Origin: an uncultured delta proteobacterium
GTDB taxonomy: Bacteria > Desulfobacterota > BSN033 > UBA1163
Assembly (NCBI GenBank): GCA_963708295.1
Contig: CAVPSJ010000014.1
Coordinates: forward strand, 32,001 to 96,000
Reading direction: 5' to 3'
DNA length: 64,000 nt
Shown piece after piece: positions 1,256 through 38,326 of this stretch (its first letter is position 1; every line of letters begins with the position of its first letter). The notes under the pieces were generated by a model. The model was not told the DNA's origin. It saw nothing but the letters and a program-made list of their open reading frames with translations, and made no database searches. The translations under genes and the position numbers were made by a program.

Positions 1256-1435
1256 AACATTCACTTTCCAATCAAACGTACCGGGGCTTTCAAGAAGGAT
1301 GATCAAACAACAATATTTTAGACAATAATACATTCACGAGTTTTATTCCAATGAACAGGTAAGCCGTTTAAAAGAAAACGGTGATCGCTAGCCTAGTCAA
1401 GGTTTTGTATTATGTCATGCTTGTCCAAAATAACA

Positions 1436-4136: not shown

Positions 4137-4934
4137 TTAAGGGCAGACCGGTACCGCCGCTCCTCCACCCCCTCCTCCACCAGTCGTTGCACCGATGATG
4201 GCGATGGCTGCTATCCCCACTCCACTAATAATCGCTATCCATCCCCACGTCGGAATCCCTAAGAACTTGGAAGATTCGGCAGGGTTTGTGGTTTTCTCGC
4301 TCGCCTGCGCCACCATCACTTTTGGAGGGGTTTTCACAGTGACGGAAGGGAGGGTGACCGCGTCTTTGGAGGAAAGTGAAGCCAGGACACGCTTCTGATT
4401 TAAGACGGAGAGGGAACCCTGGAAACTCCTGACCGTGACTGCCCCGTTGGAATGGACCGAGATGGATCCGATCGTCGCTTCGCTCTTTGATGAAGCAGCC
4501 GAAAGGTTTTTGGAAGCCTCAAGGGATTTCGATTGGATAACCGTCAAATCCCCCACTTTGAAACTCAACTCAGTCGTGGAGGGAAGTCTGAAGTCAATGG
4601 TTCCCTCAGTCAGTTGAATCTGATCGCTTCGATCGAATGAAAGGAGGCTGTTTTCCTTTACCTCAATCAGACGATTGCCTTCTAACGTGATCAGGGAGGC
4701 CCCTTTTTCAATCTTTATTCTCATTCCCGAAAAAATTGGAAACTGGGAAAGCTCCACATTCTTCCATACCGCCTTCCTTGATTCAAACTTCACTTCTCCC
4801 CTTGAAACCATCTCACCCAGAGGCCGACCTATTTCCTTAGCCTCAACAATCATTGTATGAAATCCACTTGCCAGAAGCAAAAAGGACACGCAAAGGAAAA
4901 ACACCCAAACCTTGAAAGCAAATCCTCTTTTCAT
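4137..4934 (-). CDS. Exported FecR-like beta-rich hypothetical protein with C-terminal TM helix and Gly-rich tail
   Basis: Signal peptide, FecR-like beta segment (GEMVSRGEVKF...LIEVKENSLLSF...LTEGTIDF), then WGWIAIISGVGIAAIAII and GGGGGGGAAVPVCP. Confidence 0.6.
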   Translation of the reverse strand: MKRGFAFKVWVFFLCVSFLLLASGFHTMIVEAKEIGRPLGEMVSRGEVKFESRKAVWKNVELSQFPIFSGMRIKIEKGASLITLEGNRLIEVKENSLLSFDRSDQIQLTEGTIDFRLPSTTELSFKVGDLTVIQSKSLEASKNLSAASSKSEATIGSISVHSNGAVTVRSFQGSLSVLNQKRVLASLSSKDAVTLPSVTVKTPPKVMVAQASEKTTNPAESSKFLGIPTWGWIAIISGVGIAAIAIIGATTGGGGGGGAAVPVCP

Positions 4935-5424: not shown

Positions 5425-5441
5425 TTGGTATGGGAATTGCG
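5425..5441 (+). promoter_or_regulatory. Sigma54 (-24/-12) promoter of the omcS cluster
   Basis: TTGGTATGGGAATTGCG with exact GG-N10-GC spacing, 30 bp before the first gene. An AT-rich IHF-like tract lies upstream (~5355-5385). Confidence 0.7.
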
Positions 5442-5470
5442 TTATACAGTCTAGTTGAAGTTAAGCCCAA

Positions 5471-6427
5471 GTGAAACGCGCCATGAAGATTAAACTGACG
5501 AGGTTATTCGTAGGATTTTTGTTAATTGTTCTTTTCGTGATGGGGATTTCGACTTCCGTCAAGGCGAATGTCAAGGCTGCGTTTCTATACAGCCTTTCTA
5601 ACTTCACAGGCAAGATACCTTATAGCGCCACAAGGATCAGCGTCGATAAACAATCGGGAGAGATTTACGTCATCTATGAAAACCTGCTGAAAGTATTTAA
5701 TCAAGCCGGAATGGAAATTTACCGTTTCGGTGAAGATTTAGATGTTGGACAAATCCTCGATCTGGCTGTCGATCCGAATGGTGACCTGCTGCTTCTTACG
5801 GTCAAGGATTCGAAACAGATGTTGGTCCAATGCAATTACAGGGGAGATCCGACATCCGAAATAGGGCTAAGAAACCTTCCCCCTGAGTTTTCCGGAGTTG
5901 TGGCGAATCGCCTGGTATGCCATGGCGAAAGCCTCTATTTCGGATCTGCCGGAGGGATGAAAATTGTCATTACCGACCTGGAGGGCAACTTTAAGAAAGG
6001 ATACGACCTGATCTCCCTTCTTGAGCTCAAAGAAGAGGACAGGGGAAACATGGAGATATTCGGTTTTAGCGTAGACGGGAACGGAAATATTCTATTTACG
6101 ATTCCTGTCCTGTTTAAGGCCTTCATGCTTTCAGATGATGGGAAAATTTCGTATTTCGGGAGGCCGGGCGGCGCCCCGGGCAAATTCAATATCGTTTCAG
6201 GAATTGTAAGGGATAGTAGAGGGAATTTTCTGGTGGTTGACCGATTGAAGTCCGCCGTGATGATTTTTGACAAGAAGCTTAGTTTCGTGACCCAGTTTGG
6301 CTATCGCGGTTTCAAGCCGGAAAACCTCTTTAACCCGGATGACATCGCCATTGATAGCAATGACAGGATCTATGTGACCCAGCAAAGAAAAAGGGGGGTA
6401 AGTGTTTTCAAGCTGACTTACGATTAG
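5471..6427 (+). CDS. Exported NHL-repeat beta-propeller (first gene of the omcS locus)
   Basis: Signal peptide and NHL-like repeats (FGRPGGAPGKFNIVSGIVRDSRGNFLVVD, LFNPDDIAIDSNDRIYVT). Directly upstream of omcS. Confidence 0.85.
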   Translation: MKRAMKIKLTRLFVGFLLIVLFVMGISTSVKANVKAAFLYSLSNFTGKIPYSATRISVDKQSGEIYVIYENLLKVFNQAGMEIYRFGEDLDVGQILDLAVDPNGDLLLLTVKDSKQMLVQCNYRGDPTSEIGLRNLPPEFSGVVANRLVCHGESLYFGSAGGMKIVITDLEGNFKKGYDLISLLELKEEDRGNMEIFGFSVDGNGNILFTIPVLFKAFMLSDDGKISYFGRPGGAPGKFNIVSGIVRDSRGNFLVVDRLKSAVMIFDKKLSFVTQFGYRGFKPENLFNPDDIAIDSNDRIYVTQQRKRGVSVFKLTYD

Positions 6428-6443
6428 GCTTTAGTTGGCAGAC

Positions 6444-6472
6444 ACGTGACACAAAGCACGGTCACGTTTTTT
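6444..6472 (+). terminator. Hairpin plus U-tract between the NHL gene and omcS
   Basis: ACGTGAC-N10-GTCACGT followed by a T run. Confidence 0.45.
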
Positions 6473-6631
6473 CGATTTCACAGGGGGTAATTCGGGGGGA
6501 AATAAAAAATAAAGAAGGAGGTGGTCGAAGGCAATCGATAATAAGCAAGTGATCAGTGATCGGTAATCAGTAGGCAGTAAACAGTAAACACTAAGCAGGA
6601 AGCAGGAAAAAAAATTTATTAGGAGGACAAA

Positions 6632-7873
6632 ATGAAAGGATTGAAATTGAGTTTGGTTATCATGGCTGCAGCCTTGTTAACCATCGGTTTAGGCGGAGTG
6701 GCCTATGCCTTCCATGCCGGCGGCGTTGCGGAATGTGCCGGATGTCACAGCATGCATAGCCCAATGGGCGTACATCTATTACTTGCCTCAGATGCCAGTT
6801 CGACATGTTTGACCTGCCATGAGCACGCGGGAGATACGGGTCCGAGTTCGTATCACGTGAGCACTGCCCAGGCCAATTTGACGGTGGGAACCGCTCCCCT
6901 CCAGAGAGGTCCGGGAGGAGATTTTGCCTGGCTGAAGAAAAACTATGCCTATACGTCCCATGGAACGGCGAGTTATGAAGACGCCTCTATCCACGGCCAC
7001 AGCATTATTGCTGCGGATAACGGATATACGGTTGTTGATCCTGTGCATGCCACATCACCTGGTGGCAGTTTCATGTCAAGCAACCTTGGCTGCGACAGTT
7101 GCCATGACCCTCACGGAAAAGGCAGAATACTCAGCAGCGGCACATACGCGTCTACTGGCGCCCCGATCATAGCATCCGGTTCAACGGCCAGTGCTCTTCC
7201 CGCCGCTGGTCAGGCGTTTGGCCTCTACAGAATACTGGCTTGGCCAGGCTATGCCGGAGCTCCAGGCGCGACATACACCACATGGCCGATTGCGATATCC
7301 CCATCTAGTTACAACAGGACCGAAGCGGCCACCATGACTCGAATTGCGTATGGCGGCGGAGCTAGCGCGAATGGTTGGGGAAAATGGTGTGGAACTTGCC
7401 ATGCGGCTATAGCCAACAATTCAGGACTTCAAGGCCATCCTTCCCACAAGGTCGACACCGCGTTAGGCTCTACGTATGGAACTATTTACAATAATTACGT
7501 GAAAACGGGCGATATGTCCGGGACCTTTGGTGGCACAACGCCTGGTCCCTACACCTCACTCGTCCCGTACCAGGAAGCTACGAGTGCTATTCCGACTCTT
7601 TATAGTCATGCGAAAACCGACAATTGCGTCCTTGGCGGTCCCTCCACGAGCGATGAGGTAACGTGTCATTCCTGCCACAGGTCGCATGCATCCGGATGGA
7701 CGCATGCGTTGAGGTGGAATAATGACACAACGTTTATCGTGAGCAACGGTGTGTATCCTGCTGAGCAGGGCCGTACTGCTATAGAGACACAGGGGGCCTA
7801 TTACGACCGGCCGGCTACTGTCTTTGCAGCCTACCAGAGGTCGCTCTGTAACAAGTGCCATGCGATGGACTAA
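6632..7873 (+). CDS. omcS: OmcS-family hexaheme c-type cytochrome (nanowire subunit), paralog 1
   Basis: Signal peptide AYA|FHAGGVAECAGCHSMH. Six CxxCH (CAGCH, CLTCH, CDSCH, CGTCH, CHSCH, CNKCH). OmcS hallmark segments HAGDTGPSSYHVST, PGGDFAWLKK, YNRTEA and YQRSLCNKCHAMD. RBS AGGAGG. Confidence 0.93.
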   Translation: MKGLKLSLVIMAAALLTIGLGGVAYAFHAGGVAECAGCHSMHSPMGVHLLLASDASSTCLTCHEHAGDTGPSSYHVSTAQANLTVGTAPLQRGPGGDFAWLKKNYAYTSHGTASYEDASIHGHSIIAADNGYTVVDPVHATSPGGSFMSSNLGCDSCHDPHGKGRILSSGTYASTGAPIIASGSTASALPAAGQAFGLYRILAWPGYAGAPGATYTTWPIAISPSSYNRTEAATMTRIAYGGGASANGWGKWCGTCHAAIANNSGLQGHPSHKVDTALGSTYGTIYNNYVKTGDMSGTFGGTTPGPYTSLVPYQEATSAIPTLYSHAKTDNCVLGGPSTSDEVTCHSCHRSHASGWTHALRWNNDTTFIVSNGVYPAEQGRTAIETQGAYYDRPATVFAAYQRSLCNKCHAMD

Positions 7874-7931
7874 TTCAACCCTTTTCTCTCTCTCCATCTG
7901 AAAGGAAGGTGGCTGGGAGTAAAGGAAAGAA

Positions 7932-7968
7932 GGAGGGGGCCGGTATCTACCGGCCCCCTTTTTTTTGG
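7932..7968 (+). terminator. Intrinsic terminator after omcS1
   Basis: AGGGGGCCGGTA-TC-TACCGGCCCCCT followed by a T tract. Confidence 0.85.
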
Positions 7969-8051
7969 TTGAATTCCGGTCTTTTATGAGTTTTAATAGA
8001 CGTTAAACAATTAGTTTGGATGGGCCGGAAATAAGGAGGTGAATTTCCATC

Positions 8052-9671
8052 ATGATTCCGAAAAAAGCTCCATGCCCCTTGCTCTCTGCCCTATGCCCTT
8101 TGCGCTCTCGCCCCTCAGGGGAGAGGGGAAAAGCCTGCCGCGTTCTTAATACCGGGGGGAGGGGTCGTATGCCTGCCCTCCGAAAGCTCGCTGCAGGAGG
8201 GCACTATGCTCTACCTGGCCTACGAAGCCTCCGATTCTGGGGCGTAGTGGGCTGCGCTATGCTGATTCTTGCAATGCTGGGTTGCCAGGCAGCCGTGACA
8301 AGGATTAGGCCTCCCCTTGAAGAGGAGGGGGAAGTCTATCTTTATATCCAGGCTTATCCTCAGGAGGCCGAGCGACTCCGGTTTACGGTTGACGAAGCAT
8401 TTGCAGTCAGCGCTGATGGAAGAGAATTCCCGTTGGATACTTATTTGCACGAAATAAAATCGAGTGACTTGAGAAGGCAGCGGCTTCTGGGTTCCGGCAG
8501 AATTCCACCTGGTTCCTATGTCGGTTTCTCGTTCAAGACCAAAAAAGCTACTTTAAGGGGCGAAGAGGGTGAAGCCGACCTTTTGGTACCCGAGAAGTCC
8601 GTGCGAAGTGAATTCAATTTCAGGGTGAATAGAAAGACCGGATATGTTTTCTTTCTTTCCTTCAAGTATAAGGAGTCGATCGAAGCCGGTTTCAGCTTCA
8701 GTCCTGTATTTTCCGTATCTGTTCCAGCTAAACCCATCTTAAGCCTTGCCGGGTATATAAGCAACGCGGTTTCCAGCAATCTCACGGTATTTGATAAGAA
8801 AGCGACGCAGGTTACAGGCTTAATACCTGTCGGACGGGAACCGTCGGGAATGGCACTCGACCAGAGATCAAGAAGACTTTACGTGGCGGACTCAGGAGAT
8901 AATGAAATCTTAGTCGTAGACATTCTGGCAGATCAGGTGACAAACAAAATTAGACTGACCAGTGGAGATCGCCCACTGGAGCTGGCCCTTACCCCTGACG
9001 GGAGGACGCTCCTTTCGGTCAATCATGGTTCGAATACCGTAAGTTTCATAGACCCTACTTCTCTGTTTGAGTTGAACAGGGTAAATGTCGGCAATGGCCC
9101 TCGCTCCATTGTGATCGATCCTGCCGGCAGAAGGGCTTATGTGTTCAATACCGTCTCTGGGACGATCACTGTGCTCGACATACCAAACCGGGCCATCATC
9201 ACCACGTTTTCCACGGACCCCGGTCCGTTAAGAGGGGACTTCAGCCCAAAGGGTGATAACCTTTATGTCATTCACGAGCTCTCTTCTTATCTGGCAGTCA
9301 TTGACCCTGTCTCATTCAGAGTCTTGAAGAGATTTTCGATTGGGCCTGGAATGATCTCGATCAAGGTCGACAGCCGGACAGGTCTGGTTTATATTAGCCG
9401 AAGGAATGATATTTTTGTGGGAGTATACAATCCCTTCTCTTTTGTTGCCGTCGATCTTATAAGAACCGGAGGGACAGTCAATTATATGACGATTGACGAT
9501 GAGGAAAATAACCTCTACATGGTTAGCTCTGAGATGAAGAGAATCATTGTGAGTAACCTCGTGAGAAAAAAGATTCTGTATGAGGTCGATGTGGGGGAAA
9601 CCCCCTACTGGGTGAGCGTCATGGGGGAACGTCTTCTGCAGATTATTAGAACACCCGTTTTTCGACAATAA
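8052..9671 (+). CDS. YVTN/YncE beta-propeller lipoprotein (osc-cluster component)
   Basis: Strong RBS AAGGAGGTG and lipobox-like LAMLG|C. YVTN repeats (AGYISNAVSSNLTVFD, IPVGREPSGMALD, VNVGNGPRSIVID). Start uncertain because the N-region contains repeat-derived sequence. Confidence 0.8.
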   Translation: MIPKKAPCPLLSALCPLRSRPSGERGKACRVLNTGGRGRMPALRKLAAGGHYALPGLRSLRFWGVVGCAMLILAMLGCQAAVTRIRPPLEEEGEVYLYIQAYPQEAERLRFTVDEAFAVSADGREFPLDTYLHEIKSSDLRRQRLLGSGRIPPGSYVGFSFKTKKATLRGEEGEADLLVPEKSVRSEFNFRVNRKTGYVFFLSFKYKESIEAGFSFSPVFSVSVPAKPILSLAGYISNAVSSNLTVFDKKATQVTGLIPVGREPSGMALDQRSRRLYVADSGDNEILVVDILADQVTNKIRLTSGDRPLELALTPDGRTLLSVNHGSNTVSFIDPTSLFELNRVNVGNGPRSIVIDPAGRRAYVFNTVSGTITVLDIPNRAIITTFSTDPGPLRGDFSPKGDNLYVIHELSSYLAVIDPVSFRVLKRFSIGPGMISIKVDSRTGLVYISRRNDIFVGVYNPFSFVAVDLIRTGGTVNYMTIDDEENNLYMVSSEMKRIIVSNLVRKKILYEVDVGETPYWVSVMGERLLQIIRTPVFRQ

Positions 9672-10480
9672 GAAGCATAGAGCATGGCAACATAATGAGC
9701 ACCAAATTCCAAACCACAAATTCCAAATAAGCTCCAATGACCCAAATTCAAAAATCCAAACTCTTTGATTTAGAAGAAAGGTTCTTCGCTCTCCTCCAAC
9801 CATTCCCTCTTTGGCAAAAGGGTAGATCCGAACATTCCCCCCTTTGGAAAAGGGTAAATCCAAACACTCCCCCCTTTGGAAAAGGGGGGTGGGGGGGGAT
9901 TTTTAGAACATATGCTTTCTTATGATAAGCAGTTGAAATCGTTATCGCAGCATCTCAGAAAAAATATGACGGATGCTGAAAACCTATTGTGGTCAAAATT
10001 GAGGCGAAAGCAACTGAAAGGGCATCCGTTTTATCGTCAAAAGATTATCGGGAAGTATATCGTTGATTTTTACTGTCCGAAGGCAAATCTTGTTGTAGAG
10101 CTTGATGGTGGACAACACTATTCTGAGATAGGGCAAGTAAGAGATAGGGTAAGAGACGATGTTCTTGAGGAAATGGGATTAAAGGTCCTCAGGTTTTCGG
10201 ACAGGGATGTTTTTGAGAATATCGGCGGAGTGACGGAAATGATATGGAGTCGTTTATGACCTATAAAATCTCCCCTTGCCCCTCTTTACCAAAGAGGGGG
10301 AAAGAAAGAGAGAAATTTGCCAAAGAGGGGAAAAGGAAAAGGTCCGATGGATGCCAGGGGGGATTATTTGGAGCTTGGAATTTGGGATTTGGAGTTTTAA
10401 AAAAAGTTGATATGTCCCTTGCCAATTGTTCTATCCTTGTCAAATTTATCCCTCTGCTCTCTGCCCTCTGCTCTCTGCTG
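9672..10480. mobile_element. Nested palindromic repeat cassette centred on a DUF559 endonuclease gene
   Basis: Three concentric inverted layers around the gene (see findings). Confidence 0.6.
9912..10259 (+). CDS. DUF559 (Vsr-like) endonuclease
   Basis: LRKNMTDAENLLWSKLRRKQLKG.PFYRQKIIGKYIVDFYC...VVELDGGQHY...DRVRD..L...GLKVLRF is the DUF559 signature. Confidence 0.92.
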   Translation: MLSYDKQLKSLSQHLRKNMTDAENLLWSKLRRKQLKGHPFYRQKIIGKYIVDFYCPKANLVVELDGGQHYSEIGQVRDRVRDDVLEEMGLKVLRFSDRDVFENIGGVTEMIWSRL

Positions 10481-12670
10481 ATTTTATTGTTGCTGTTGCC
10501 TATTGGGGCAAATGCCCAGGGTCTATTTCAGGGAATTACCGGCTCTTTGGAATTCAATTACAATTATTTGACTTCCAAGACAACCGATGCGACCGGAAAT
10601 ACGGTGAAAACAAGAGCACAGACCTATTTCCCTCGATTTCAATTTGATATCAACACGGATATCTTTCCCAATCTGAGACTAATGGCTGGCGGGATTGCGG
10701 AAGGGTTTATAACAGACCTTAAATCAGATGGGTCTGACGTCACGACGACGCAGCTTAATTTCAGACCATACATCGATCTTACTCTGAGGACGCCCTTTTA
10801 TTGGGCGAGTATGGGCTACGTGAGAAGACAGCAGATAACAGATGCCACGAATTCGTCTTCTATCAATCTTATCAGAGATGAGTATTACGGAATTCTTGGA
10901 TTGCGACCCGAGGGGTTACCATTCATGGAGTTGCAACTTAGAAAGAGAGATTCTTATGACGATGCCAAGTCAATCCTGAATACTACGGAGGAGTTGATCA
11001 GCCTCAATTCAAGATATCAATATAAAGGTCTTCTGCTTGATTATTACGGTACTTATCTGCATACGAAAGATGAAGTACGCAATCTTGACGTTGTCCAGCA
11101 GACCCATACGGGGAGAGCTTCCTATTCAGATTCGTTTCTTGATAAACGATTAGCGGTCAATACCAATTATAACGTATTGTACCAGGGAACGACGACCAAA
11201 TCAACAAAACAAGGAGTCATAGACCAGGGAGTTGTAACCTCTCAGGCCTTTCCCACCGGAGGCCTCTTCGCCATAGATGATACACCTCTCGATGGTGCGT
11301 TAAATCCGAATCCTGCCCTCATTGATGGTGATCTGACAGCCAGTGCGGGAATCAATATCGGCCTGCCTCCGGGAGTAGATACCAGTCTGAGGAATATTGG
11401 TCTCGACTTCACGACCCCCACGGAGGTGAACCGGCTCCTCCTGTGGGTTGACAGGGATCTTTCTACGGCGTCCGATATTGTAAATTTCTTTTCTTTAAAC
11501 TTGAAGGTCTACGTCAGTTCCGATAATTTGAACTGGGTCGCCTGGCCAATCACTCCTCCAATCACTTTTGGACCTTTCGAAAATCGTTTTGAAATTAAAT
11601 TTGCAAACGTCGTTCCTCCCAGACGCTTTATAAAGGTGGTGACCCCTCCCTTGAGTCCGGCTGTTCCAGGGGCCTTTGGCTTTCCGAACATTTTCATCAC
11701 AGAATTACAGGCATTCCTTGATACATCAACAAGTACTTTCCAAAATAATAGGCAAAATAAGACCAACACAATTACCAACAACTATGATATAGACTTGAAA
11801 ATGAGGATTCTGGACGATCCGTCTTTGTTCTATGAATTCTATGGTTACTACAATAACAGGCAGAACGCTGTTGACGAGACGAGGTATACCATCTCGAATG
11901 CATTTTACACTTTCCATAGATTTAACGAAGTCTTTTCAGGCAGGGCAAGGGTGGCAGTGGAAAATGGAAAGGAACTGGAAGATAAGAGGGTTGCTTATAT
12001 TTATGATGCTGCGCTTATAGCCGACCCCTTGAGAACGCTCCACAATAGCCTCGTCGTCAACGGCAGGAACGAAGAAATAGGCGGGAGACCTAATGATGTG
12101 AATTCGGTATTTCTATATAACACCGCGCAATTGTATAAAGGGATAGATGTGAGTCTTAATGGCGGTGTAAATTTTACAAAGCAGGAAACGGGTGAAAGCG
12201 GAAGAGATTTTATTATTACTTTTCAGACGAATATCGTACCTCACAGAACGCTGACTCTGGGACTCAATTACAATAATACGGTAGCCCAGAAATCAGGGGG
12301 AAATCTGGGTTCCACGTCAACCACTACACAAATCCTTGATATTAATTTGAATTACAATCCCTTCACGACTTTAAATCTTTTTGCTTATCTCCAGTATGTT
12401 AGGGAATCGGGACAGAAGGATAGGATCCTTCAGAATTACGCTATCAACTGGATGCCTTTTCCCGATGGAGCACTTCAGTTTAATATTGCTTATAATGAAA
12501 ATTATAGGTCCGAGGACCACTTAACGGAAAGAATTTTCGTGCCAAGCGTCCGATATTACCTTTCAAAACGGTCATACTTACAAGTTTCATATCAATTAAT
12601 TCGAAGCAGTAGCGATATCGAGAAGATAGATTCGAACCTGTTTAGTACAAGTCTAAAGATATATTTCTGA
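10412..12670 (+). CDS. Large outer-membrane beta-barrel with inserted soluble domain (osc-cluster channel candidate)
   Basis: Signal peptide ending ANA|Q, alternating beta-strands rich in Y/N/F, C-terminal LKIYF. Central insert (LIDGD...RNIGLDF..PTEVNRLLLW...KVYVSSDNLNW...RFIKVV...ITELQAF) resembles a discoidin/F5-8 module. Confidence 0.8.
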   Translation: MSLANCSILVKFIPLLSALCSLLILLLLLPIGANAQGLFQGITGSLEFNYNYLTSKTTDATGNTVKTRAQTYFPRFQFDINTDIFPNLRLMAGGIAEGFITDLKSDGSDVTTTQLNFRPYIDLTLRTPFYWASMGYVRRQQITDATNSSSINLIRDEYYGILGLRPEGLPFMELQLRKRDSYDDAKSILNTTEELISLNSRYQYKGLLLDYYGTYLHTKDEVRNLDVVQQTHTGRASYSDSFLDKRLAVNTNYNVLYQGTTTKSTKQGVIDQGVVTSQAFPTGGLFAIDDTPLDGALNPNPALIDGDLTASAGINIGLPPGVDTSLRNIGLDFTTPTEVNRLLLWVDRDLSTASDIVNFFSLNLKVYVSSDNLNWVAWPITPPITFGPFENRFEIKFANVVPPRRFIKVVTPPLSPAVPGAFGFPNIFITELQAFLDTSTSTFQNNRQNKTNTITNNYDIDLKMRILDDPSLFYEFYGYYNNRQNAVDETRYTISNAFYTFHRFNEVFSGRARVAVENGKELEDKRVAYIYDAALIADPLRTLHNSLVVNGRNEEIGGRPNDVNSVFLYNTAQLYKGIDVSLNGGVNFTKQETGESGRDFIITFQTNIVPHRTLTLGLNYNNTVAQKSGGNLGSTSTTTQILDINLNYNPFTTLNLFAYLQYVRESGQKDRILQNYAINWMPFPDGALQFNIAYNENYRSEDHLTERIFVPSVRYYLSKRSYLQVSYQLIRSSSDIEKIDSNLFSTSLKIYF

Positions 12671-12699
12671 TGGAAATGGTTGAATCTTACTATACCGGC

Positions 12700-12745
12700 G
12701 GCTAACCCTTCTCTCCCCACTGGGAGAGGGAAGAGACGGCTCCCA
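12700..12745. repeat. boxC-like hairpin
   Basis: CTAACCCTTCTCTCCCCACTGGGAGAGGGAAG. Confidence 0.5.
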
Positions 12746-12822
12746 TTGATTTCTGCTTTTTTTTCAGTAATATATAAAATGCACAATTCTTCACAAAATA
12801 ATTTTTAACGGGGGGGGATATT

Positions 12823-13407
12823 GTGATTGGTAAAATGAGAATTAGGCATCTAAAAATTTTCCTCATTTTTTCTGTCTTCTTCTTAACCTCATGTGCGACT
12901 TCATTAAGGGATGTCTATATCGACCCGAATATGGACTTCGGGGCAGTTAAAAGTATAGCCGTAATGCCTTTTTTGAGTCTTGCAAGAGATCCGGTTGTGG
13001 CCGACAGGGTAAGAGATGTCTTTATTAACAAGCTCTTGGCAACAGGCGCTGTCTATGTCCTGCCGGTTGGAGAAGTCGCCCGGGGAACCGCAAGGGCGGA
13101 AATTCAGAATCCCTCTGCGCCCTCTCCTGAAGAGGCGGTGAAGTTAGGGGGAATTATCAAGGTCCAGGCAATCATTACAGGGACGGTAAGGGAATACGGT
13201 GAGGTGAGATCCGGAACAGCTGCCGCAAATGTTGCATCTGTTAGCGTTCAGATGATCGAGACACAGACCGGCAAAGTCGTGTGGTCGGCTTCCTCTACGG
13301 AAGGTGGAGTTAATATATGGGACCGTCTTTTCGGCGGAGGTGGCAAGCCGATGAATAAAGTGACCGAGAAAGCAGTCGATGATCTTATCCGAAAACTATT
13401 CAAATAA
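12823..13407 (+). CDS. CsgG/GNA1162(DUF799)-like lipoprotein
   Basis: Lipobox LTS|C, then SIAVMPF, VQAIITGTVREY and QMIETQTGKVVWSAS. Confidence 0.8.
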   Translation: MIGKMRIRHLKIFLIFSVFFLTSCATSLRDVYIDPNMDFGAVKSIAVMPFLSLARDPVVADRVRDVFINKLLATGAVYVLPVGEVARGTARAEIQNPSAPSPEEAVKLGGIIKVQAIITGTVREYGEVRSGTAAANVASVSVQMIETQTGKVVWSASSTEGGVNIWDRLFGGGGKPMNKVTEKAVDDLIRKLFK

Positions 13408-14541
13408 ATTCATCTTGATTCTGATTCTGAGCTCTATTCCTCTTTCCAAACTTCGCAGTTAGCGAAGAGCTTGGAAAAGAAAATGTTGCCGCGACGAAGG
13501 AAGGAATCCGGGTTGCCGTCTTGCCACTTGAAAACCTCAGTGGGACAATGGCGCCTATCAAAGAGATCAGGCAGATCTTCATTGAAAAGTTGAGAAAGGC
13601 GGGGGTTGACGTTCTCAATGAAGAGGCTTTAGAGAAGTTTATGGCAAAGCACCGTATCCGGTACACGGGCGGGATCGACAAGAATACAGCTCAAGCGTTT
13701 AAACAAGAAGTAAACGTCGACGGTGTCTTCATTGCCTCATTAGAGTTCTACAGCGATGCCAACCCCCCAAAGATTTCTTTGATCTCCAGATTGGTTTCAA
13801 CAGGGGAAAGTCCTTCTATTTTGTGGATGGACGGAGTTGGATTAGCCGGAGACGATTCAAGAGGTCTTCTGGACCTGGGGCTGATCGAGGACCCCAAAGT
13901 TCTTTTGGACAAGGCGATGAACGTGATGTTCGATTCGCTGTATCGGTATCTTTCGACGAAAGCAGATGCAGAGAGAAGGGCATGTTGCCAAGAGGAAGTT
14001 TCGACCCAAAATGTTTTACCGTTCTCCAGCCCTGGATCAGGAAAGAAAATATACGGTGGCCATTGTTCCCTTCGTGAATTTGAGCGGGAGAAAATATGCG
14101 GGAGATATTCTCGTCCTTCATCTTGCCAAGGAACTAAAAAAATATGACAATTTCAATGTGATTGAATTTGGCATGGTGAGACAGACTTTCCTTGAATTGA
14201 GGATTATTATGGACCAGGGAATCTCACTGCCCCAAGCTGATCCTATCTTTGCCTTATTGAACGCAGACCTGATTCTGTCAGGAGATGTTACCGATTATGA
14301 CGATTACCATGGAATATGGGGAATACCCAAAGTTGGGTTTACCACTCAGCTCATCGCAAAAAAGAATCGGGAGGTCGTTTGGAGTTCAGATGGATACAAC
14401 GAAGGAGAGGATGGGGTCTTCTTTTTCGATCTGGGGAGAGTGAATACGGCACATGTTATGGCTTCTCAGATGGCACAGTGGATTGGTAAAATGGTGCTGG
14501 GCCAGGAGAAAAAGGTTCAAGCCTCTTCCAGTAAAGATTAA
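13379..14541 (+). CDS. Exported protein with two CsgG/LpoB-like domains, split by frameshifts
   Basis: Domains start RVAVLPLENLSG and TVAIVPFVNLSG. The 13521 and 13966 ORFs join, and an ATG at 13379 gives a hydrophobic leader after one further indel. Confidence 0.7.
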
Positions 14542-14576
14542 AATACGGAGAGATTTGGGAATCGAAGAGAGGTGAT

Positions 14577-16207
14577 ATGAGACATTTTACTGGGGCGTCA
14601 AGAATCATACTGGTGCTTGGTTTTCTTCTTGGAATTTCAAGCATCGGGTTAGGACAAGATCTGCCAATGATTAAAGGGAAGAAGACTGTTGCCATCGTAA
14701 ACGGGGAGCCCATTACCTTAAGCGAATTCAATCAGGAACGGCGCGGGAGTAGAAAGCGAAGAGAAGAGGCTGGATTTACTCCGGCGGTTGATTAACTCAC
14801 GGCTGATGATTCAGGAAGCGAGAAGAATGGGGATTGATCAGTTAAAGGAATTAAAAGAGAGGGTTGACGTATTTGCGAAGGTGACACTCCGGGAAAAGTT
14901 GCTGGAAACACATATTAGAAATATTAAACCCGATGAGAAAAGAAGTAGAGAAGGTCTACCGGGAAGCCGTCAAAGAGTTCAAAATCAAATCGATCGTTTT
15001 TGATAAAGAAGAAGACGCCAACCAGATGGAGGGCTTGCTTAAGGACGGGAAGGACTTCGATAAGGTGTTGGAGAAATTTCTCTCGGAAAAAAAGGGGAAG
15101 GGGAGTCAGGAAGGAGTCTTTTTGAAGAATAAGGCATTGTTGCCGGAGATCGCAGAGGCCGTTTCAAAAATGAATGTTGGATCGATTAGCCCAGTTGTTC
15201 GAATTAAATCAGGCTATGTCGTTTTCAAAATCGAAGACATCCGTTATCCTGAAGACCCTGAAATAAAGAAAGAAGTGGAACTGGACCTGCTTACAAAAAA
15301 GCAGCAGGAAGCCATATCCAAATACTGTGAGGACCTAAACAAAAAGTACGCAAAAGTAAATCAGGAGCTTCTCAAGAGCCTGGATTTTGAGTCGAAAGAA
15401 CCAGGGTTCGAGAACCTTATCAAGGATAAGCGTGTGGTGGCAGAGATAAAGGGGGAGAGACCCATCACGGTGGGTGAGCTCACGGATTATATGCGGCAGC
15501 AGCTTTATCATGGCGTAGAGATGGCCGTTGAATCAAAAAGATTGAACAAGAGAAAAGCAAAAATACTGGATGAAATGCTTCAAAAAAGAACCCTCAGGGT
15601 AGAAGCGCTCCGGTTGGGTCTGGACAAGAAGGAAAGCTATAAGAACCAGGTCAAAGAACACGAAAACTCGTTAATCTTCGCTGCTTTCATTCAAAAGGCT
15701 GTCGCCCCGGACATCAAATTGAAAGAAGAGGAACTTAGGGCCTACTATGATCAACATATTAACGATTACACCCATCCTGAGATGATGAAAATAAGCGGTC
15801 TCGTCTTTTCAAAAAGGGATGACGCAGAGAAGGCCATCACCAACTTGCGAAAGGGGACAGATTTCCGGTGGGTGAAAGAGAATGCTGAAGGGCAAATCAA
15901 TCAAAACGAAAAGGGTGTGTTGGTTTTTGATGGAAGGCTCCTCACGACAAAAGATCTGCCCGAAGGAGTGAGCAAGGCCGTCACCGGGGCCAAAGCGGGC
16001 GATTTCAGACTTTATGAAAGCCCGGAGAAACATTATTATGTTTTGTACGTTCAGGAGGTTAATCCCTCGAGACCCCAGCCCTATGCAGAGGCGAAAGAAG
16101 AGATTGCGAAGAAGATCTATAATGAAAAACTTATCAAAGCCGTGGAGGACTATGCGGACAAATTGAGAGCCGTTTCGGAGGTAAAAATTTTTCTAAAGGA
16201 CAACTAA
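14577..16207 (+). CDS. SurA/PpiC-type peptidyl-prolyl isomerase chaperone (two rotamase domains), split by frameshifts
   Basis: TVAIVNGEPITLSEF; LINSRLMIQEARRMGID; VGSISPVVRIKSGYVVFK; VAEIKGERPITVGEL. Three ORF pieces in different frames. Confidence 0.8.
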
Positions 16208-16443
16208 ATGCAAAGAGCATAGCCTAAAGGAGAAGCGCCAAATACCAAATACCAAATTTCATAAGGATATCAAAGCTTCAGTTTCCTGAACGACCCAATT
16301 GAAAACTATTTGAATTTTGGTCATTGGAGTTTATTTGGGATTTGGAGATTGGAATTTGGAGTTTATCTGAAGTTTGGGATTTGAAATTTGTCATTTGGGA
16401 TTTGAACTGTATACGCTATGCCCTCTGCCCTCTGCTCTATGCT
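16208..16443. repeat. Nested inverted heptamer tandem repeats
   Basis: Outer pair GCAAAGAGCATAGC / GCTATGCCCTCTGCCCTCTGCTCTATGC. Inner pair CCAAATACCAAATACCAAAT / ATTTGGGATTTGGAGATTGGAATTTGG. Confidence 0.7.
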
Positions 16444-16463
16444 TGAATTAAAAGGGAGTTGCC

Positions 16464-18465
16464 ATGTCATTCTTACGATCGAAAGTTAAAGTGCTCCTCT
16501 TAGGGATAGTCCTTTTACTCTGTGGAGTTCTGCTGTATGCCTGTGCCGAAGCGCCGCGGCAAAGGACCCTGGGAGGGGCTGCAGGTACGGGGAAGCGATT
16601 TGCACAGAAAGATTGCCTCGATTGTCACAAGAAGTTTGCGGACAAATATCTTGGGATGAAATATGTCCATGGGATGGTTAAAGAGAAAAAATGTGAAGAT
16701 TGCCATTTGCGTCATGGTCTTGTTCCAAAATTGATTCTGAAAAAAGAAGGTAACGAAATTTGCTATCCCTGCCACAGCCGGGAAAAGATAGGGCTAAACA
16801 AACCGAATGTTCATACGGCCCTGAAGAGAGGGAAATGCATTCAATGCCATAATCCCCATGCCTCCCAGTTCAGTCACCTGTTAAAAGCAGAAGGGAATGA
16901 AGCCTGCTATCAATGTCATAAAAAGGAGAATTACGAGAAGAAAGTCGTCCATAAAGTAGGGGCAAAAGGTTGTACGACGTGCCACTCTTCCCATAGTTCT
17001 GACCAGAAAGACCTTTTGGTGAAAGCGGAGACTCCTCTCTGCCTCAGCTGCCATGACAGCGGCAAGGAACCTTTTAAGAAGGCCCACGGGAATTATCCGG
17101 TGAATCAAGCCTTATGCTCAGGTTGCCATAATCCTCACTCTTCATCTCAAGTAAAGCTTCTGAAAACGAGCGCCCATAGTCCTGTGGCTTCAAAAGAATG
17201 CGATGCATGCCATAAGCCCCCGTCAGACCCAAAGCCTTTTGCGACCACGGAGGCAGGGAGCAAGCTCTGCTATAATTGTCATGACGCCTCAAAATTGAAA
17301 GCCGGTGGAAGTGTAGAACATGGTCCTTTTAAAGAAGGAGAATGTCTTACTTGTCATACCGCCCATACTTCGGAATACCCGCAGCTTCTTGCTAAGAGAG
17401 GGAATCTTCTCTGTTTTGATTGTCATAAGGAAAAAAGTGAGAAGCGTGGCCGTCAATCATGCTCCTGTCACCAGTGAAAAGGGATGCCTTTCCTGCCATC
17501 CGCCTCACGCCGCCAAATACAAGAATCTTCTAAACACAAAAGACGCAGCTCTATGTTTTTCATGCCATACGAAGACAAGGGACGCGCCGAAGTCTAAAGT
17601 ATCTCATGCTCCCTTTTGTCGAAGGGGAATGTAATTCATGCCATAATCCTCATGGTTCGAATATCAAAAATATTATTAAGGACAGGATGGACAGGGTTTG
17701 TTATACGTGCCATTCCGATGCCGAAGCAAAGTTTTTGAAGACCTATACCCATAAACCCGTCGTGGATGCGAACTGTGATGCCTGCCATCAGTCCCACGGA
17801 TCGAATGAGAAGAATCTCCTGAAATTTAGCGGTTCCAAGATGTGCGCTCAGTGTCATGGCGATCTCATGAAAGCGGAGACGAGCGGCACGAACCATAACC
17901 CTTTTGCAGAAGGGGAATGTCTCACATGCCATGATGCCCATGGGAGCAATATTAAAGGGATGACCGTGAATAAAGAAGGTGCTCTCTGTTTCTCTTGCCA
18001 CGGAGATGTGAGCAAAGGGCTAAAAGCTGCAAAGAGCCAGCACAAGCCCCTGTTAACGGATGAATGTACGAAGTGCCACAGCCCTCACAAGACAAAATTA
18101 GACAAACTTCTTTTGGCAAAGAGTCCTGATCTTTGTCTGACCTGTCATAAAGACCTGAAGACCAAGATGGAAAAGGAAAAGGCGCATCAACCGGCTGCTC
18201 GGGATTGCGAGAGATGCCATAAGCCCCATTTTTCAGCGGAGTCGCCTCCTGATGAATCAGGCCATTCAGCCCTTATGCGGGGAATGCCACGATTTTAAGA
18301 AGCCAGCCTTTGGCAAGGCTCACCTCGATATCGAGGCGGCGTGTCATGGATTGCAGAACTTGCCATGATCCCCATGCTTCAAAAGACCCGAAGTTCTTCA
18401 AGACTGTTATTCATCCTCCGTTTGCGGGAAGGTCGTGTGAGGACTGCCACGTCGTCAGTAAGTAA
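16464..18465 (+). CDS. 26-heme lipoprotein cytochrome c, split by frameshifts
   Basis: Lipobox LYA|C. CxxCH count over the joined frames is 12 + 2 + 9 + 3 (CGECH, CRTCH, CEDCH) = 26, with recurring CxxCHxPH..LL repeats. Confidence 0.85.
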
Positions 18466-18563
18466 AGATGCAAAGCGCATAGAGCATGAGGGCACGGGGC
18501 ATAGGGAAAGAGAGAAAAGATATTACGGACTGACGGATTGAAAGAGTTATGAAAGGGTATCCA

Positions 18564-19901
18564 ATGAAATTGCGATTGAAATGGTTCTTCTTATTCACAG
18601 GTTTGATTTTGATTCTGGTTTTTTCGGCGGCTTATGGGCAGCAGAATAAATTCAAGCTGAAACCTGGCGCCCAGGGGAAACTCTGTCTGGAATGTCATGA
18701 TGCCTTCAAGGAAAAGCTCAAGAATCCATTTGTCCATACCCCCGTGAAGACGGGAGAATGCACGGAATGTCATAATCCGCATTCTTCCTCTCATGGAAAG
18801 TTGCTGGACGAAGATCCAAACAAAATCTGCAATAAGTGCCATGAAGGGATTGTGCCCAAGGATCCAAAGAGCATTCATAAAGTTGTGATGGAAGGCAATT
18901 GCGTAAAATGCCATGACCCCCATGCCTCAAAAAACAAATTCGTCCTTCTGAAAGCGGGAAACGAACTCTGTTTTGATTGTCACAAAAATATCGGCAATGC
19001 CGTCACCAAAGCAAAGTTCAAGCACAGTCCTGTGGAGAAAGGATGCGTCGGTTGCCACGAGCCGCATGCTTCGACCAAAGGAAAACATCTTCTGAAAAAT
19101 GATCTGGTGGCTCTCTGTGTGAGCTGTCACAAGACGGACCAGGCTTCCTTTTCAAAGCAGCATATGAATTATCCCGTGGCGAAGTCAGACTGTTCGTCTT
19201 GTCATGACGCCCATGGCTCGAATAAGGCAGGAATATTATTCGATAATGTGCATGCATCCGGTTGCGAATAAAATGTGCAACCAGTGCCATGAAGCCTCCA
19301 CTTCTCCCGATGCGCTCAAGACCAAGAAGGCCGGGTTTGATCTGTGTCGTGGTTGTCACAGCAGCATGATGAATGAGGCATTTAATAAGAACCGGATCCA
19401 CTGGCCTCTGGTGGATAAGGTGGGTTGTTTGAACTGCCATGAGCCCCATGCCTCGCAACAGAAAAAGCTTCTGATGGGGGACATGAAAACCTTGTGTGGA
19501 AAGTGTCATATGGACACCATGGAGTCACAGGAAAAGCTTGTCAAAAAAGAGAAGCAGGAAAATGCTGCTGTCGGAAAGGTGGCCGCGATCAAGGGTGCCA
19601 TCACGCACAATCCCATACAAGAAGGAAATTGCGACGCCTGCCATTCGTCTCATGCGCTCTGATAGTGTTTTCCTTTTGAAGCGGCCCTTCCATTATTGAA
19701 AGTCTGCGGAACCTGCCACGATTGGACGAAACATACGAGCCACCCCATGGGGGAGAAGATCATTGACTCGCGAAATAAGAACATTACCATGCAGTGCCTG
19801 AGTTGTCATCAGGTCTCACGGAACCGGATATCGGATATCTGATGCCTTTCCCGACGGTCACGGATCTTTGCGTCCAGTGCCACAAACAATACAAGAGGTG
19901 A
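18564..19901 (+). CDS. 16-heme periplasmic cytochrome c, split by frameshifts
   Basis: Signal peptide AYG|Q. CxxCH count 8 + 5 + 3 (CGTCH, CLSCH, CVQCH) = 16. Ends CVQCHKQYKR*. Confidence 0.85.
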
Positions 19902-19919
19902 TCAGCAAGAAACTGCGAT

Positions 19920-20054
19920 AATTGGAGTGTTGGAGTAGTGGAGTATTGGAAGAAAAAATGAATAGTGGGTGGTGGAAATATTGGGAGAGGATCAAAGATA
20001 GAAAGCTTTCGGTGGTTTTCGTTTCATCCAGCACTCCAATACTCCATTACTCCG
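19920..20054. repeat. Inverted 8-bp tandem repeats
   Basis: TGGAGTGTTGGAGTAGTGGAGTATTGGA pairs with TCCAGCACTCCAATACTCCATTACTCC. Confidence 0.7.
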
Positions 20055-20102
20055 AATGCCCCTTGTTACTCGGGTGAGTCTGGTCTTGAAAGAGGTGAAT
20101 CA

Positions 20103-21016
20103 ATGGTAGGAACTTCGATTAAAATCATAATGATTATTGGCATTCTGCTTTTGCCGATGAAGTCTTTTAGCGCTGAAACGGTGAAGTTTAGGTACCTTCA
20201 ATCTGTCTATTTCGATGAGAAAGGGTGGAGGCATGAAGCAACCGGAAGGAGTTGCCTGCGGCGAAAAGGATCTCTCTGATCGTTGGCGATACCGGAAAAC
20301 GATCGTCTTCTCCGGTATACCTTCCAGGAAAAGAAGTTTAAAGGCTGGAACCGAGATTAAAATCCCGCAGCTATCCAATCCGATCCGACTTCAAATCAAT
20401 TCCAAGGGAGAAATTTTTGCTCTGGATGGTAAGAAACGGCGCATCATCCGGCTGAATCCTGACGGAACGTTCAAAGGCTATGTGGATGCAGAGGGTATCC
20501 CTTCCCCTTCAACCTTCGTTCCGAGGAGCTTTAAGATAGACAGGAATAATAATATCTACATCCTCGATATATTTTCAGGCCGTGTGCTGGTCCTCAACTC
20601 CGGAAGGCAAATACCAAAAACAGATTCCATTCCCGAAAGATTATGGATTTTTCTCCGACCTATCCGTCGATTCGAAAGGTACGCTGTTCTTAATCGACTG
20701 TGTCAAGGCCATGGTTTTTTCGGCCGCTAAGGATTCAAACAGCTTTTCTCCGTTAACAAAGAATCTGAGAGAATATCTAGATTTTCCAACCAGCATCACA
20801 ACGGATAACCGGGGGACCATTTTTATCGTCGACCAAAATGGGAGCGGCATCGTTATTCTCGGACAGGATGGGTCTTTTCAGGGGCGGCAGTTGAACATGG
20901 GATGGAATGAGGGTCTTCTATACTATCCTTCTCAGATGTGTATCAACGAAAAGGGAGAGGTTTTCATCGCCGACCGGGGCAATAGCCGGGTTCAGATATT
21001 TACGCTCGTTAAATAG
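20103..21016 (+). CDS. Exported NHL-repeat protein (last gene of the cluster), split by frameshifts
   Basis: RBS GAGGTG and signal peptide. MKQPEGVAC, LDFPTSITTD and LYYPSQMCINEKGEVFIADRGNSRVQIF. Confidence 0.8.
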
Positions 21017-21075
21017 AAACCTTCGGGTATTATTATTGAGAGCAGGGAATAGTTTGCATTTGGGATTACAAGAAG

Positions 21076-21170
21076 CTGTCATTGCGAGCCCGCCCCGTTC
21101 CGGGATTCTTCGGAAGAGGCCGTGGCAATCTCGCTCTGAGATTGCTTCCTCGCTACACTCCTCGCATGAC
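21076..21170. repeat. GTCATTGCGAG...GCAATCT / AGATTGCTTC...CGCATGAC palindromic element
   Basis: A related half-copy lies at 54961-55021. Confidence 0.6.
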
Positions 21171-21221
21171 CTACTAGAACCGCGATACAAATTATAATAT
21201 TTTCTGTTTAATAAATGAAAA

Positions 21222-21268
21222 TAAAAAGAGGGCCAGCGGGTAATCTGCCAGCCCTCTTTGTTTTTTTG
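21222..21268. terminator. Bidirectional terminator between the cluster and omcS2
   Basis: AAAAAGAGGGC...GCCCTCTTTGTTTTTT between convergent genes. Confidence 0.7.
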
Positions 21269-21301
21269 CCGAACGGCTTGAATTCTATCCCCCCGACAAG
21301 G

Positions 21302-22543
21302 TCAGTCCATCGCATGGCATTTGTTACAGAGCGACCTCTGGAAGGCTGCAAAGACAGTAGGCGGCCGGTCGTAATAGGCCCCCTGTGTCTCTATAGCCGT
21401 ACGGCCCATCTCGGCAGGATACACGCCGTTGCTAACGATGAACGATGCCTCATTATTCCACCTCAAGGCATGCGCCCAACCGGATGCGTGCGACCTGTGG
21501 CACGAGTGACACGTTACCTCATCGCTCGTGGAGGGGCCACCAAGGACGCTATTGTCGTTTCTCGCATGACTTGCAAGGGTCGTAATAACACTCGTGGCTT
21601 CCTGGAACGGGACGAGTGAGGTGTAGGGACCAGGCGTTGTGCCACCAAAGGTCCCAGACATATCGCCCGATTTCACGTAATTATTATAAATAGTTGCATA
21701 CGTAGAGTTTAAAGCGGTGTCGACCGGGTGGGAAGGATGGCCTTTAAGTCCTGTCATGTTGGCTATGGCCGCATGGCAAGTTCCGCACCATTTCCCCCAA
21801 CCATTAGCGCTACCGCCGCCGCCATAAGCAATTCGAACCATATTCGTCGCTTCGGTCTGGTTGTAAGTAGACGGAGAAACTGCGATCGGCCATGAGGTAT
21901 AAGTCGCACCTGGAGCCCCGGCATAACCTGGCCAGGCCAGAATCCTGTAGAGACCGACCGCCTGACCAGCTGCTGGAACAATGCCTGTGGAGCCGGATGC
22001 TATAATCGGGGTGCCGGTACTCGCATATGAGCCGTCGCTGAGTCTCCTGCCCTTTCCGTGAGGGTCATGGCAACTGGCACAGCCAAGGTTGCTTGACAGG
22101 AAACTGCCACCCGGAGATGTGGGATGCACAGGATCAACAGTCGTATAGTTGTTGTCCGCAGCGATAATGCTGTGACCGTGGACAGATCCGTCTTCGAAAT
22201 CGGCCCCCTGCGCCGTCAGGGCATAGTTTTTCTTTAACCAGGCAAAATCTCCGGCCGGACCTCTCTGTAAGGGAGCGGTTCCAACGGTCAAATTGGCGTC
22301 TGCAGTGCTCACGTGGTACGAAGTCGGACCCGTATCCCCTGCGTGCTCATGGCAGGCCAAACATGTTGAACTGGCTTCTGAGGAAATTAAGAGATGGGAA
22401 CCCGACATTGGGCTATGCATGCTATGACACCCGGCACACTCCGCAGCGCCGCCCGAATGGAAGATCTGTTGCGCTAATCCGTTGACACTCGTGATTAATA
22501 GAAATGCAACAACGATCCCCAGACTTAACTTTGGTGCTTTCAT
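21302..22543 (-). CDS. omcS: OmcS-family hexaheme cytochrome, paralog 2
   Basis: Start MKAPKLSLG with RBS AAGGAGG, 413 aa. QQIFHSGGAAECAGCHSMH, six CxxCH, same C-terminus QRSLCNKCHAMD as paralog 1. Confidence 0.92.
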   Translation of the reverse strand: MKAPKLSLGIVVAFLLITSVNGLAQQIFHSGGAAECAGCHSMHSPMSGSHLLISSEASSTCLACHEHAGDTGPTSYHVSTADANLTVGTAPLQRGPAGDFAWLKKNYALTAQGADFEDGSVHGHSIIAADNNYTTVDPVHPTSPGGSFLSSNLGCASCHDPHGKGRRLSDGSYASTGTPIIASGSTGIVPAAGQAVGLYRILAWPGYAGAPGATYTSWPIAVSPSTYNQTEATNMVRIAYGGGGSANGWGKWCGTCHAAIANMTGLKGHPSHPVDTALNSTYATIYNNYVKSGDMSGTFGGTTPGPYTSLVPFQEATSVITTLASHARNDNSVLGGPSTSDEVTCHSCHRSHASGWAHALRWNNEASFIVSNGVYPAEMGRTAIETQGAYYDRPPTVFAAFQRSLCNKCHAMD

Positions 22544-35350: not shown

Positions 35351-35412
35351 GCTTTATCCTCCGTTCCGCTTTCCTAATACCTTGCCCTTTGCTCTATGCC
35401 CTATGCGATATT

Positions 35413-36810: not shown

Positions 36811-36854
36811 AAGCGGCCTCCTTTGGATTTTTATTTTGGTTCTAAAGTATAAAC

Positions 36855-36905: not shown

Positions 36906-36907
36906 AT

Positions 36908-38312: not shown

Positions 38313-38326
38313 TTAGATTTTGAGAA

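Follow-up and report, generated by a model that had tools for sequence, protein, structure and literature searches.

Can a bacterium outside the Geobacteraceae carry a working counterpart of the omcS gene cluster of Geobacter sulfurreducens? This question is raised by a 64 kb stretch of DNA (the window; coordinates are window positions unless a contig or locus is named) on contig C14 of G000, the genome of an uncultured delta proteobacterium whose close homologs are named Thermodesulfobacteriota. The original prediction took positions 5425–22543 for a complete OmcS nanowire cluster with its companion genes, and all of the parts it listed were recovered there by open reading frame (ORF) calling and family scans (Table 1). 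The corresponding osc (omcS companion) cluster of G. sulfurreducens reportedly spans GSU2505–GSU2493; Shen et al. are said to have described it in Cell Chem Biol in 2025, under a title that calls the machinery widespread and ancient. On balance, we favour the reading that the window encodes a functional, sigma-54-controlled osc-type operon. Its products would fold and export an OmcS-family hexaheme cytochrome via an outer-membrane barrel and PelC-like partners, with 26-heme and 16-heme cytochromes as the link to the periplasm, for extracellular electron transfer.

Orthology and synteny with the osc locus

The reference was genome G445, which encodes a hexaheme identical to PDB 6EF8 over all 407 residues and was taken as G. 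sulfurreducens. G445 came without annotation, and its genes received GSU numbers according to their order, after PMC12977616, PMC13194489 and PMC10599522, an excerpt of which annotates GSU2502–2507. Every cluster gene of G445 has its best G000 match in the window, in the same order, including all eight genes of the GSU2500–2493 block; the reverse search covered the fetched G445 loci. A GSU2505-type NHL gene heads the operon, and the hexaheme is 44% identical to its G445 counterpart in the two-way comparison. The predicted correspondence with GSU2493–2505 is thus borne out, with orthologs in both directions, matching order and identities of 36–61%.

Completeness, as originally claimed, is slightly overstated on two counts: no hexaheme goes with OmcT or OscC, and the GSU2502 homolog is not inside the operon but about 5 kb upstream on the other strand. 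This gene is the best G000 match (28–30% identity) of the G. sulfurreducens gene between omcT and oscC and scores above the NF037959 cut-off. The regions fetched for G004, G011 and G020 did not show this gene, which makes it look accessory. The genes are also not all co-oriented, because the second hexaheme lies on the minus strand, convergent with the operon, and a tandem co-oriented reading was rejected. Finally, two proteins had been labelled CsgG-like. They score 18.2 and 17.8 bits against a PF03783 gathering cut-off of 20.8, and their PDB profile matches are PelC and GNA1162, not CsgG, so the CsgG identity was discarded. The smaller lipoprotein matches PelC 9H80 at E=5.5e-6, the larger protein has PelC-type profile matches at E of about 1e-3, and a lipoprotein homolog matched GNA1162/LpoB clusters only.

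Table 1. Features of the cluster and its upstream flank, in window coordinates (identities are to G. sulfurreducens genes unless stated; MFS, major facilitator superfamily; PPIase, peptidyl-prolyl isomerase)
Feature	Position	Strand	Remarks
GSU2502-like fused MFS/spermidine synthase, 5' end	1..488	-	892 aa, C14 29810-32488, extends past window edge
GtrA-family flippase-like protein	833..1333	-	PF04138 E=2e-17; window end of upstream glycosylation cassette
Second fused MFS/spermidine synthase	1889..3463	+	NF037959 201.8 bits vs cut-off 40; same position in G010
265-aa secreted-looking ORF	4137..4934		Divergent from promoter
Sigma-54 -24/-12 motif (GG-N10-GC)	5425..5441	+	Upstream of NHL gene
NHL beta-propeller, GSU2505 position	5471..6427	+	PF01436; 40% to gene upstream of omcS, both directions
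OmcS-family hexaheme copy 1	6632..7873	+	413 aa, signal peptide, 6 CxxCH + 6 conserved distal His
YVTN/YncE beta-propeller lipoprotein, GSU2500/OscD position	8052..9671	+	TIGR02276, PF21783; 43%
DUF559 endonuclease-like ORF	9876..10259	+	PF04480 E=7e-35
Outer-membrane beta-barrel, ~30 strands, inserted domain, GSU2499/OscE position	10415..12670	+	36%
PelC/GNA1162-like lipoprotein, GSU2498/OscF position	12823..13407	+	61%; invariant Cys
Larger PelC-like protein, GSU2497/OscG position	13379..14541	+	51% and 44% over two halves; 1-2 frameshifts
SurA-like PPIase, GSU2496/OscH position	14577..16207	+	PF13145 E=1e-33; 38%; 2 frameshifts
26-heme cytochrome, GSU2495/OscI	16464..18465	+	57/52%; 4 frameshifts
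16-heme cytochrome, GSU2494/OscJ	18549..19901	+	41%; 5 frameshifts
NHL beta-propeller, GSU2493 position	20100..21016	+	PF01436; 52% and 42%; 5 frameshifts
OmcS-family hexaheme copy 2	21302..22543	-	Convergent; 82-84% identical to copy 1

Hexaheme subunits

Copy 1 matches OmcS (PDB 6EF8) at E=3e-88. Its AlphaFold2 (AF2) model has a mean predicted local distance difference test score (pLDDT) of 62 and retrieves only 6EF8 at E<0.001 in Foldseek (E=1e-23, TM score 0.69). All 12 His ligands, six in CxxCH motifs and six distal, are invariant among 30 aligned sequences. They include H42, which aligns with His16 of mature OmcS, a residue that we take to be the cross-subunit heme ligand. His ligation across subunits is described, with no residue number, in PMC12307469, and our literature search did not find the number His16 in print for this ligand.

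The name omcS, used for both genes in the original prediction, is not supported. In a quick tree of 46 rows, the window copies fall in a nine-row clade (Shimodaira–Hasegawa-like approximate likelihood ratio test (SH-aLRT) 97) together with an Acidobacteriota and other short-loop hexahemes; OmcS is in a separate six-row clade (93) and OscC in a three-row clade (99). The window copies are outside the OscC clade, and copy 1 holds the place of OscC by position. BLAST scores against OmcS, OmcT, OscC and OmcJ are close (323, 312, 296 and 302 bits), and a section of PMC12977616 states that true OmcS cannot be called beyond the genus.

Judged by sequence, copy 2 arose from copy 1 by a recent duplication, the two being sisters in the tree, and a convergent hexaheme occupies this place also in G012, G163 and G418. 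The two genes form inverted arms of about 1.1 kb (6709–7871 and 21304–22463, 84–90% identity) around the machinery genes, on which gene conversion or inversion might act. A Nitrospirota locus (L006:6793-16518) has a tandem array of at least six OmcS-family genes, of which two are nearly identical.

Proposed regulation and function

The sigma-54 motif occurs three times on both strands of the whole window. Among 10 other genomes checked, it was found upstream of the NHL gene in seven and not in G020, G082 and G445. The rarity of the motif in the window, combined with a gene order common to genomes of other families, means that the cluster pattern is not due to chance. The host genome has rpoN. 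A sensor kinase with one CxxCH and a sigma-54 response regulator are encoded at C14 14971–18305 (L121), and this pair also lies upstream of the cluster in six of six relatives (61–88% identity; directly upstream in four), making it the probable dedicated regulator. Scans for sigma-70 promoters and terminators returned counts at chance level (23 vs 22.4 and 17 vs 21.6, respectively).

We propose that the heme-motif kinase and its activator would switch on expression from the promoter at 5425. The hexaheme would then be exported to the periplasm, receive its hemes from System II (ResB) machinery, be folded by the PPIase and exit via the barrel with the PelC-like lipoproteins as partners. Outside the cell it could polymerise to a stacked heme filament of the OmcS type, whose shape would be set by the YVTN lipoprotein. 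These roles in folding, export and morphology are carried over by analogy from the proposal for G. sulfurreducens, where Osc roles in folding, secretion and morphology are summarised in part of PMC13194489. The 26-heme and 16-heme cytochromes, presumably periplasmic, most likely serve as the electron path that connects the inner membrane with the barrel or filament, and the host most likely passes electrons from aromatic oxidation to partner cells or to insoluble acceptors, for example Fe(III) or humic matter.

A functional operon is supported by the two-way best matches, in the same order, with a genome whose OmcS is identical to 6EF8, and by the invariant ligands, an operon that is whole and intact in six of six family relatives examined (G004, G006, G010, G011, G012 and G020), and the kinase/activator pair of these six. 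Several observations weigh on the other side. Both window hexahemes lack about 14 residues directly after His16, the region is poorly modelled by AF2 (pLDDT about 33), and neither protein groups with OmcS in the tree. Only five of the 14 other genomes of the same genus have an OmcS-like gene. The frameshift density in the cluster, discussed below, is about 2.5 per kb, roughly 17 times that of a genome control. In addition, one section of PMC13194489 cites work in which OmcS was dispensable for anode growth and Fe(III) oxide reduction.

Host metabolism and the direction of electron flow

The host class comprises 68 genomes in three families. As predicted, the host lies outside the Geobacteraceae: the family of G445 (f62) is related to it at phylum rank only, and RpoB is 72% identical over the best segment. 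Its description as an aromatic degrader also agrees with our scans, in which phenylphosphate carboxylase beta and Oah passed their cut-offs. Scores above cut-off were also obtained for dsrA and a reductive dehalogenase. Within the window, a region at 33512–42717 encodes UbiX, phenylphosphate carboxylase beta and two phosphoenolpyruvate-synthase-like subunits and resembles an anaerobic phenol carboxylation set; the reductive dehalogenase is at 51720–52865 (TIGR02486 above cut-off).

Provided that the system works, electrons could instead flow inward: minerals or partner cells would supply them, and the host would use them for the reduction of sulfite (dsrAB) or organohalides. Such a direction would be compatible with a filament, and we hold it to be plausible, if not probable. 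It fits the dsrA and reductive dehalogenase genes, and excerpts of PMC5539420 and PMC10553843 report that the same core is expressed in partners of anaerobic methanotrophic archaea (ANME), with electron import as the hypothesis. However, the host has organic electron donors of its own. Moreover, sat was not found and aprA was not above its cut-off in the host genome (91% complete), which suggests that the host may be unable to respire sulfate and would then depend on external acceptors.

In total, 35 ORFs of the host genome pass a multiheme filter. About 26 kb upstream of the operon (C14 10925-12169; L121:2926-4170) lies the gene of a 12-heme cytochrome whose N-terminus resembles NapC/NirT; it adjoins an ORF for a molybdopterin-type enzyme, and the cytochrome is a candidate quinol-side partner. 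ORFs at C14 5500-6480 read like high-GC DNA, unlike the remaining contig, and may be a foreign or chimeric segment.

Filament or porin–cytochrome conduit

The AF2 model of the barrel is confident (pLDDT 82) and shows a large barrel of the outer-membrane type that carries an inserted domain; its top Foldseek match is MtrB (6R2Q_B, E=2.5e-9). This match favours a porin–cytochrome conduit without a filament, in which the barrel would house the 26-heme protein, much as MtrB houses MtrA, with the hexahemes as surface or soluble terminal cytochromes. The 26-heme ortholog of G011, which scores above the DmsE-family TIGR03508 cut-off, and the placement of the window hexahemes outside the OmcS clade point the same way. 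The MtrB match is generic, however (TM just 0.31, 7% identity, with TonB receptors scoring alike), and MtrCAB includes neither a dedicated PPIase nor PelC-like lipoproteins. The invariance of the His aligned with OmcS His16 also speaks against a conduit without a filament. We consider a conduit alone unlikely, although extracts of PMC10553843 describe an Oet porin–cytochrome conduit for such clusters (OetABI, here minus the wire).

Frameshifts in the distal half of the operon

Export of an OmcS-family wire, as we prefer to read the operon, requires an explanation for 17 robust breaks and one uncertain break in five genes between 13,400 and 20,600 (7.2 kb). All are net +1 except one of +2, and there are zero in-frame stops; in the larger PelC-like gene the breaks lie near 13956 and possibly 13440. 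The CxxCH counts of exactly 26 and 16 were obtained solely by translating across frameshifts, and all 42 heme motifs are kept across the breaks. The 26-heme and 16-heme proteins are 74–79% and 77–83% identical to those of intact relatives, which equals the identity among the intact relatives. We detected zero frameshifts in five homolog-tested genes at 5471–13407 and in six tested at 23.5–44.7 kb.

As a genome control, 193 ORFs were taken from about 400 kb of G011, and 112 orthologs passed 65% identity and 80% coverage. Fifteen of the 112 are broken and 19 of 21 shifts are +1, giving 0.14 per kb, which is a lower bound since heavily broken genes fail the filter. An unrelated gene at 45.1–45.4 kb has two breaks within 0.3 kb, and resB, which is needed for c-type heme attachment, is also in pieces in this assembly. 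Contigs of related organisms are without the extra base at six or more sites (14936, 17445, 18248, 19655, 19687 and 20599). None of these contigs belongs to this strain; a further data set, in which some pieces are identical and which may thus be the source, was not counted as support. Given the genome-wide +1 signature and the six intact relatives, the frameshifts are very probably assembly errors. Actual decay of the distal half to a non-functional remnant in this strain, which would account for the concentration of breaks at about 17 times the genome rate beside unbroken tested genes, and for the failure to find an OmcS-like gene in nine of 14 other genomes of the genus, is improbable in view of the absence of nonsense codons, the retained heme motifs, the undiminished identity, the clustered breaks in the unrelated gene, and an insertion-only pattern that fits the error signature, bacterial pseudogenes being usually deletion-biased.

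A +1 break near codon 290 was also seen in the 16-heme gene of G445 (L118:5190-6530), and for oscJ a section of PMC13194489 gives a frameshift at position 868. Should the G445 break be real, OmcS wires may not need full OscJ.

Subunit history and a glycosylation cassette

The machinery genes form one host-family clade, and the hexaheme subunit does not. A tree of four machinery genes from 15 genomes, used in place of a poorly resolved barrel-only tree, places seven host-family genomes in one clade at 100/100, and the genus itself is not resolved. In the 46-row tree, genomes of the same genus supply hexaheme subunits to four clades. An approximately unbiased (AU) test rejected the first hexahemes of the host family as one group (7 rows vs 19, p=2e-51), with three paralogs and window copy 2 dropped and the group defined after the hexaheme tree was known. 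This conflict would be expected after subunit exchange, and also after ancient paralogy followed by differential loss.

About 19 kb separate the sigma-54 activator from the operon and encode a GT2, GtrA, three GT-C proteins with TPR, PMT_2, DUF2142 and two MFS/spermidine synthases. The GT2, GT-C+TPR, PMT_2 and DUF2142 genes are just beyond the window (C14 20335-29365). In G010, G012 and G277, the cluster is flanked by a GT2 that is 84% identical to that of the host and is accompanied by GT-C genes; this GT2 was not in the cluster regions fetched for G004, G006 and G011, and the G020 contig ends just past the kinase. A GT2/GT-C cassette lies next to the cluster both in the host and in G. sulfurreducens (G445), and the GT2 ortholog group adjoins an OmcE-like cluster in G437. 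Within the Geobacter family, the GT2 ortholog is present in 20 of 26 hexaheme-positive and 11 of 43 hexaheme-negative genomes (Fisher test on 20, 6, 11 and 32, p=5e-5, overstated as related genomes are not independent). It lies within 25 kb in eight of the 20 (at 9 kb in G445), far away in five and on another contig in seven. Glycosylation genes are linked with OmcE nanowire clusters in parts of bioRxiv 10.1101/2025.10.22.684050, and our literature search found no report tying them to OmcS clusters.

Tentatively, and with more doubt than confidence, we suggest that the osc operon may be a vertically kept chassis with a swapped subunit, through which one genus would export four hexaheme clades, and also that a mobile cassette of GT2, GtrA and GT-C/TPR genes, common to OmcE clusters and found beside omcS in G. 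sulfurreducens, may glycosylate the OmcS-family filament. Against such glycosylation, the GT-C/TPR genes have other possible targets. If the suggestion is correct, an aromatic degrader of this lineage would be able to use a glycosylated short-loop wire for the respiration of iron or of organic matter in peat. Were the osc machinery able to export a foreign subunit such as this short-loop hexaheme, the operon would serve as a wire-export platform of general use, a point of interest for nanowire engineering. In G. sulfurreducens, OmcS or its machinery may be a target of the GT-C/GT2 pair that neighbours omcS.

Other features of the cluster and of related loci

The DUF559 ORF between the YVTN and barrel genes has three paralogs elsewhere in G000 and no match in 22 related loci; it is a lineage-specific insertion outside the system. 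The YVTN lipoprotein has an LGC lipobox, and its real start is probably near 8250. The 265-aa ORF has no paralog elsewhere in the host genome and matched nothing in Pfam or NCBIfam. Intergenic gaps at 9695-9890, 10359-10397, 16239-16410 and 19932-20053 contain short degenerate repeats, both heptamer-like and inverted. Related wetland contigs pile up on these repeats and connect them to other DNA, suggesting dispersed repeat elements. In related loci, G012 has a PMT_2 (GT-C) gene inside the operon between the YVTN and barrel genes (L032:9809-11494), and in G375 the larger PelC-like protein is lengthened to 1140 aa with Y_Y_Y/PKD/Ig-like repeats (L082:8097-11519).

Distribution

An OmcS-like gene is present in one of 10 other family genomes and in none of 13 from the other families of the class; the 26-heme gene occurs in nine of the 68 class genomes, G000 counted. 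Hexahemes (E<1e-20) were detected in 15 of 401 sampled phylum genomes and in 26 of 69 Geobacter-family genomes. A protein database search gave 3281 matches among 8000 candidates. In a GTDB scan, seven of nine loci have neighbouring machinery genes and two were distant; the machinery loci include two Acidobacteriota, one Nitrospirota, one Desulfurivibrionaceae and one Krumholzibacteriia.

The novelty outside Geobacter that was originally claimed does not hold, as the cluster core was reported there in 2017 and 2023. Excerpts of PMC5539420 place a core of 16-heme and 26-heme cytochromes, PPIase and propeller in SEEP-SRB1, Ca. Desulfofervidus, Thermodesulfobacterales, Anaeromyxobacter and Desulfurivibrio, which led us to drop the idea of a cluster unique outside Geobacter, and state that four species did not express the core while respiring metals. 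An OetABI porin–cytochrome conduit accompanied by OmcS-like cytochromes is described in an excerpt of PMC10553843, which considers it rare beyond four groups. A portion of PMC10954620 notes that various bacteria have homologs of OmcS. A preprint on peat extracellular electron transfer (10.64898/2026.05.27.727921) deals, in the portion consulted, with other architectures, and its main text mentions OmcS once. Our literature search found no paper on the host class.

The host cluster adds a member to a known, already widespread system, and the picture of such clusters as widespread is unchanged. It adds an uncultured, aromatic-degrading class of Thermodesulfobacteriota to the candidates for cytochrome-based electron export. 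Relatives of the host occur in metagenomes from wetlands and peat, habitats whose terminal electron acceptor is a matter of enquiry.

Comparison with known systems

The osc cluster of G. sulfurreducens and the host cluster share an NHL gene, a hexaheme and an eight-gene block ordered alike (36–61% identity), an upstream sigma-54 activator/kinase pair, and a GSU2502-like gene and GT-C/GT2 pair nearby. They differ in that one hexaheme precedes the block in the host, whereas omcS, omcT and oscC do so in G. sulfurreducens. The host, which belongs to another class, also has a convergent hexaheme duplicate downstream, a subunit of the short-loop subfamily, the DUF559 insertion, a displaced and inverted GSU2502 homolog, and 19 kb of accessory genes separating the regulator from the operon. 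Compared with the OmcS subunit (PDB 6EF8/6NEF), the window protein has the six CxxCH, the six distal His, the fold (TM 0.69) and about 44–48% identity depending on the alignment, but its mature form has about 20 residues fewer (387 vs 407); the host hexahemes lack the post-His16 segment and fall in a separate clade.

Like the SEEP-SRB1 core (PMC5539420) and OetABI (PMC10553843), as described in excerpts of these papers, the host cluster combines 16-heme and 26-heme cytochromes, PPIase and a six-bladed propeller with a porin-like barrel and an OmcS-like cytochrome, in a Desulfobacterota host outside Geobacter that has dsrA. Here the likeness is one of description, and the host differs as an apparent aromatic degrader with sat/aprA not found and an archaeal partner not known. 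The OmcE clusters, as presented in sections of 10.1101/2025.10.22.684050, resemble the host locus as nanowire clusters flanked by GT2, GT39-type and TPR genes; in the host, by contrast, the cassette flanks an OmcS-family cluster.

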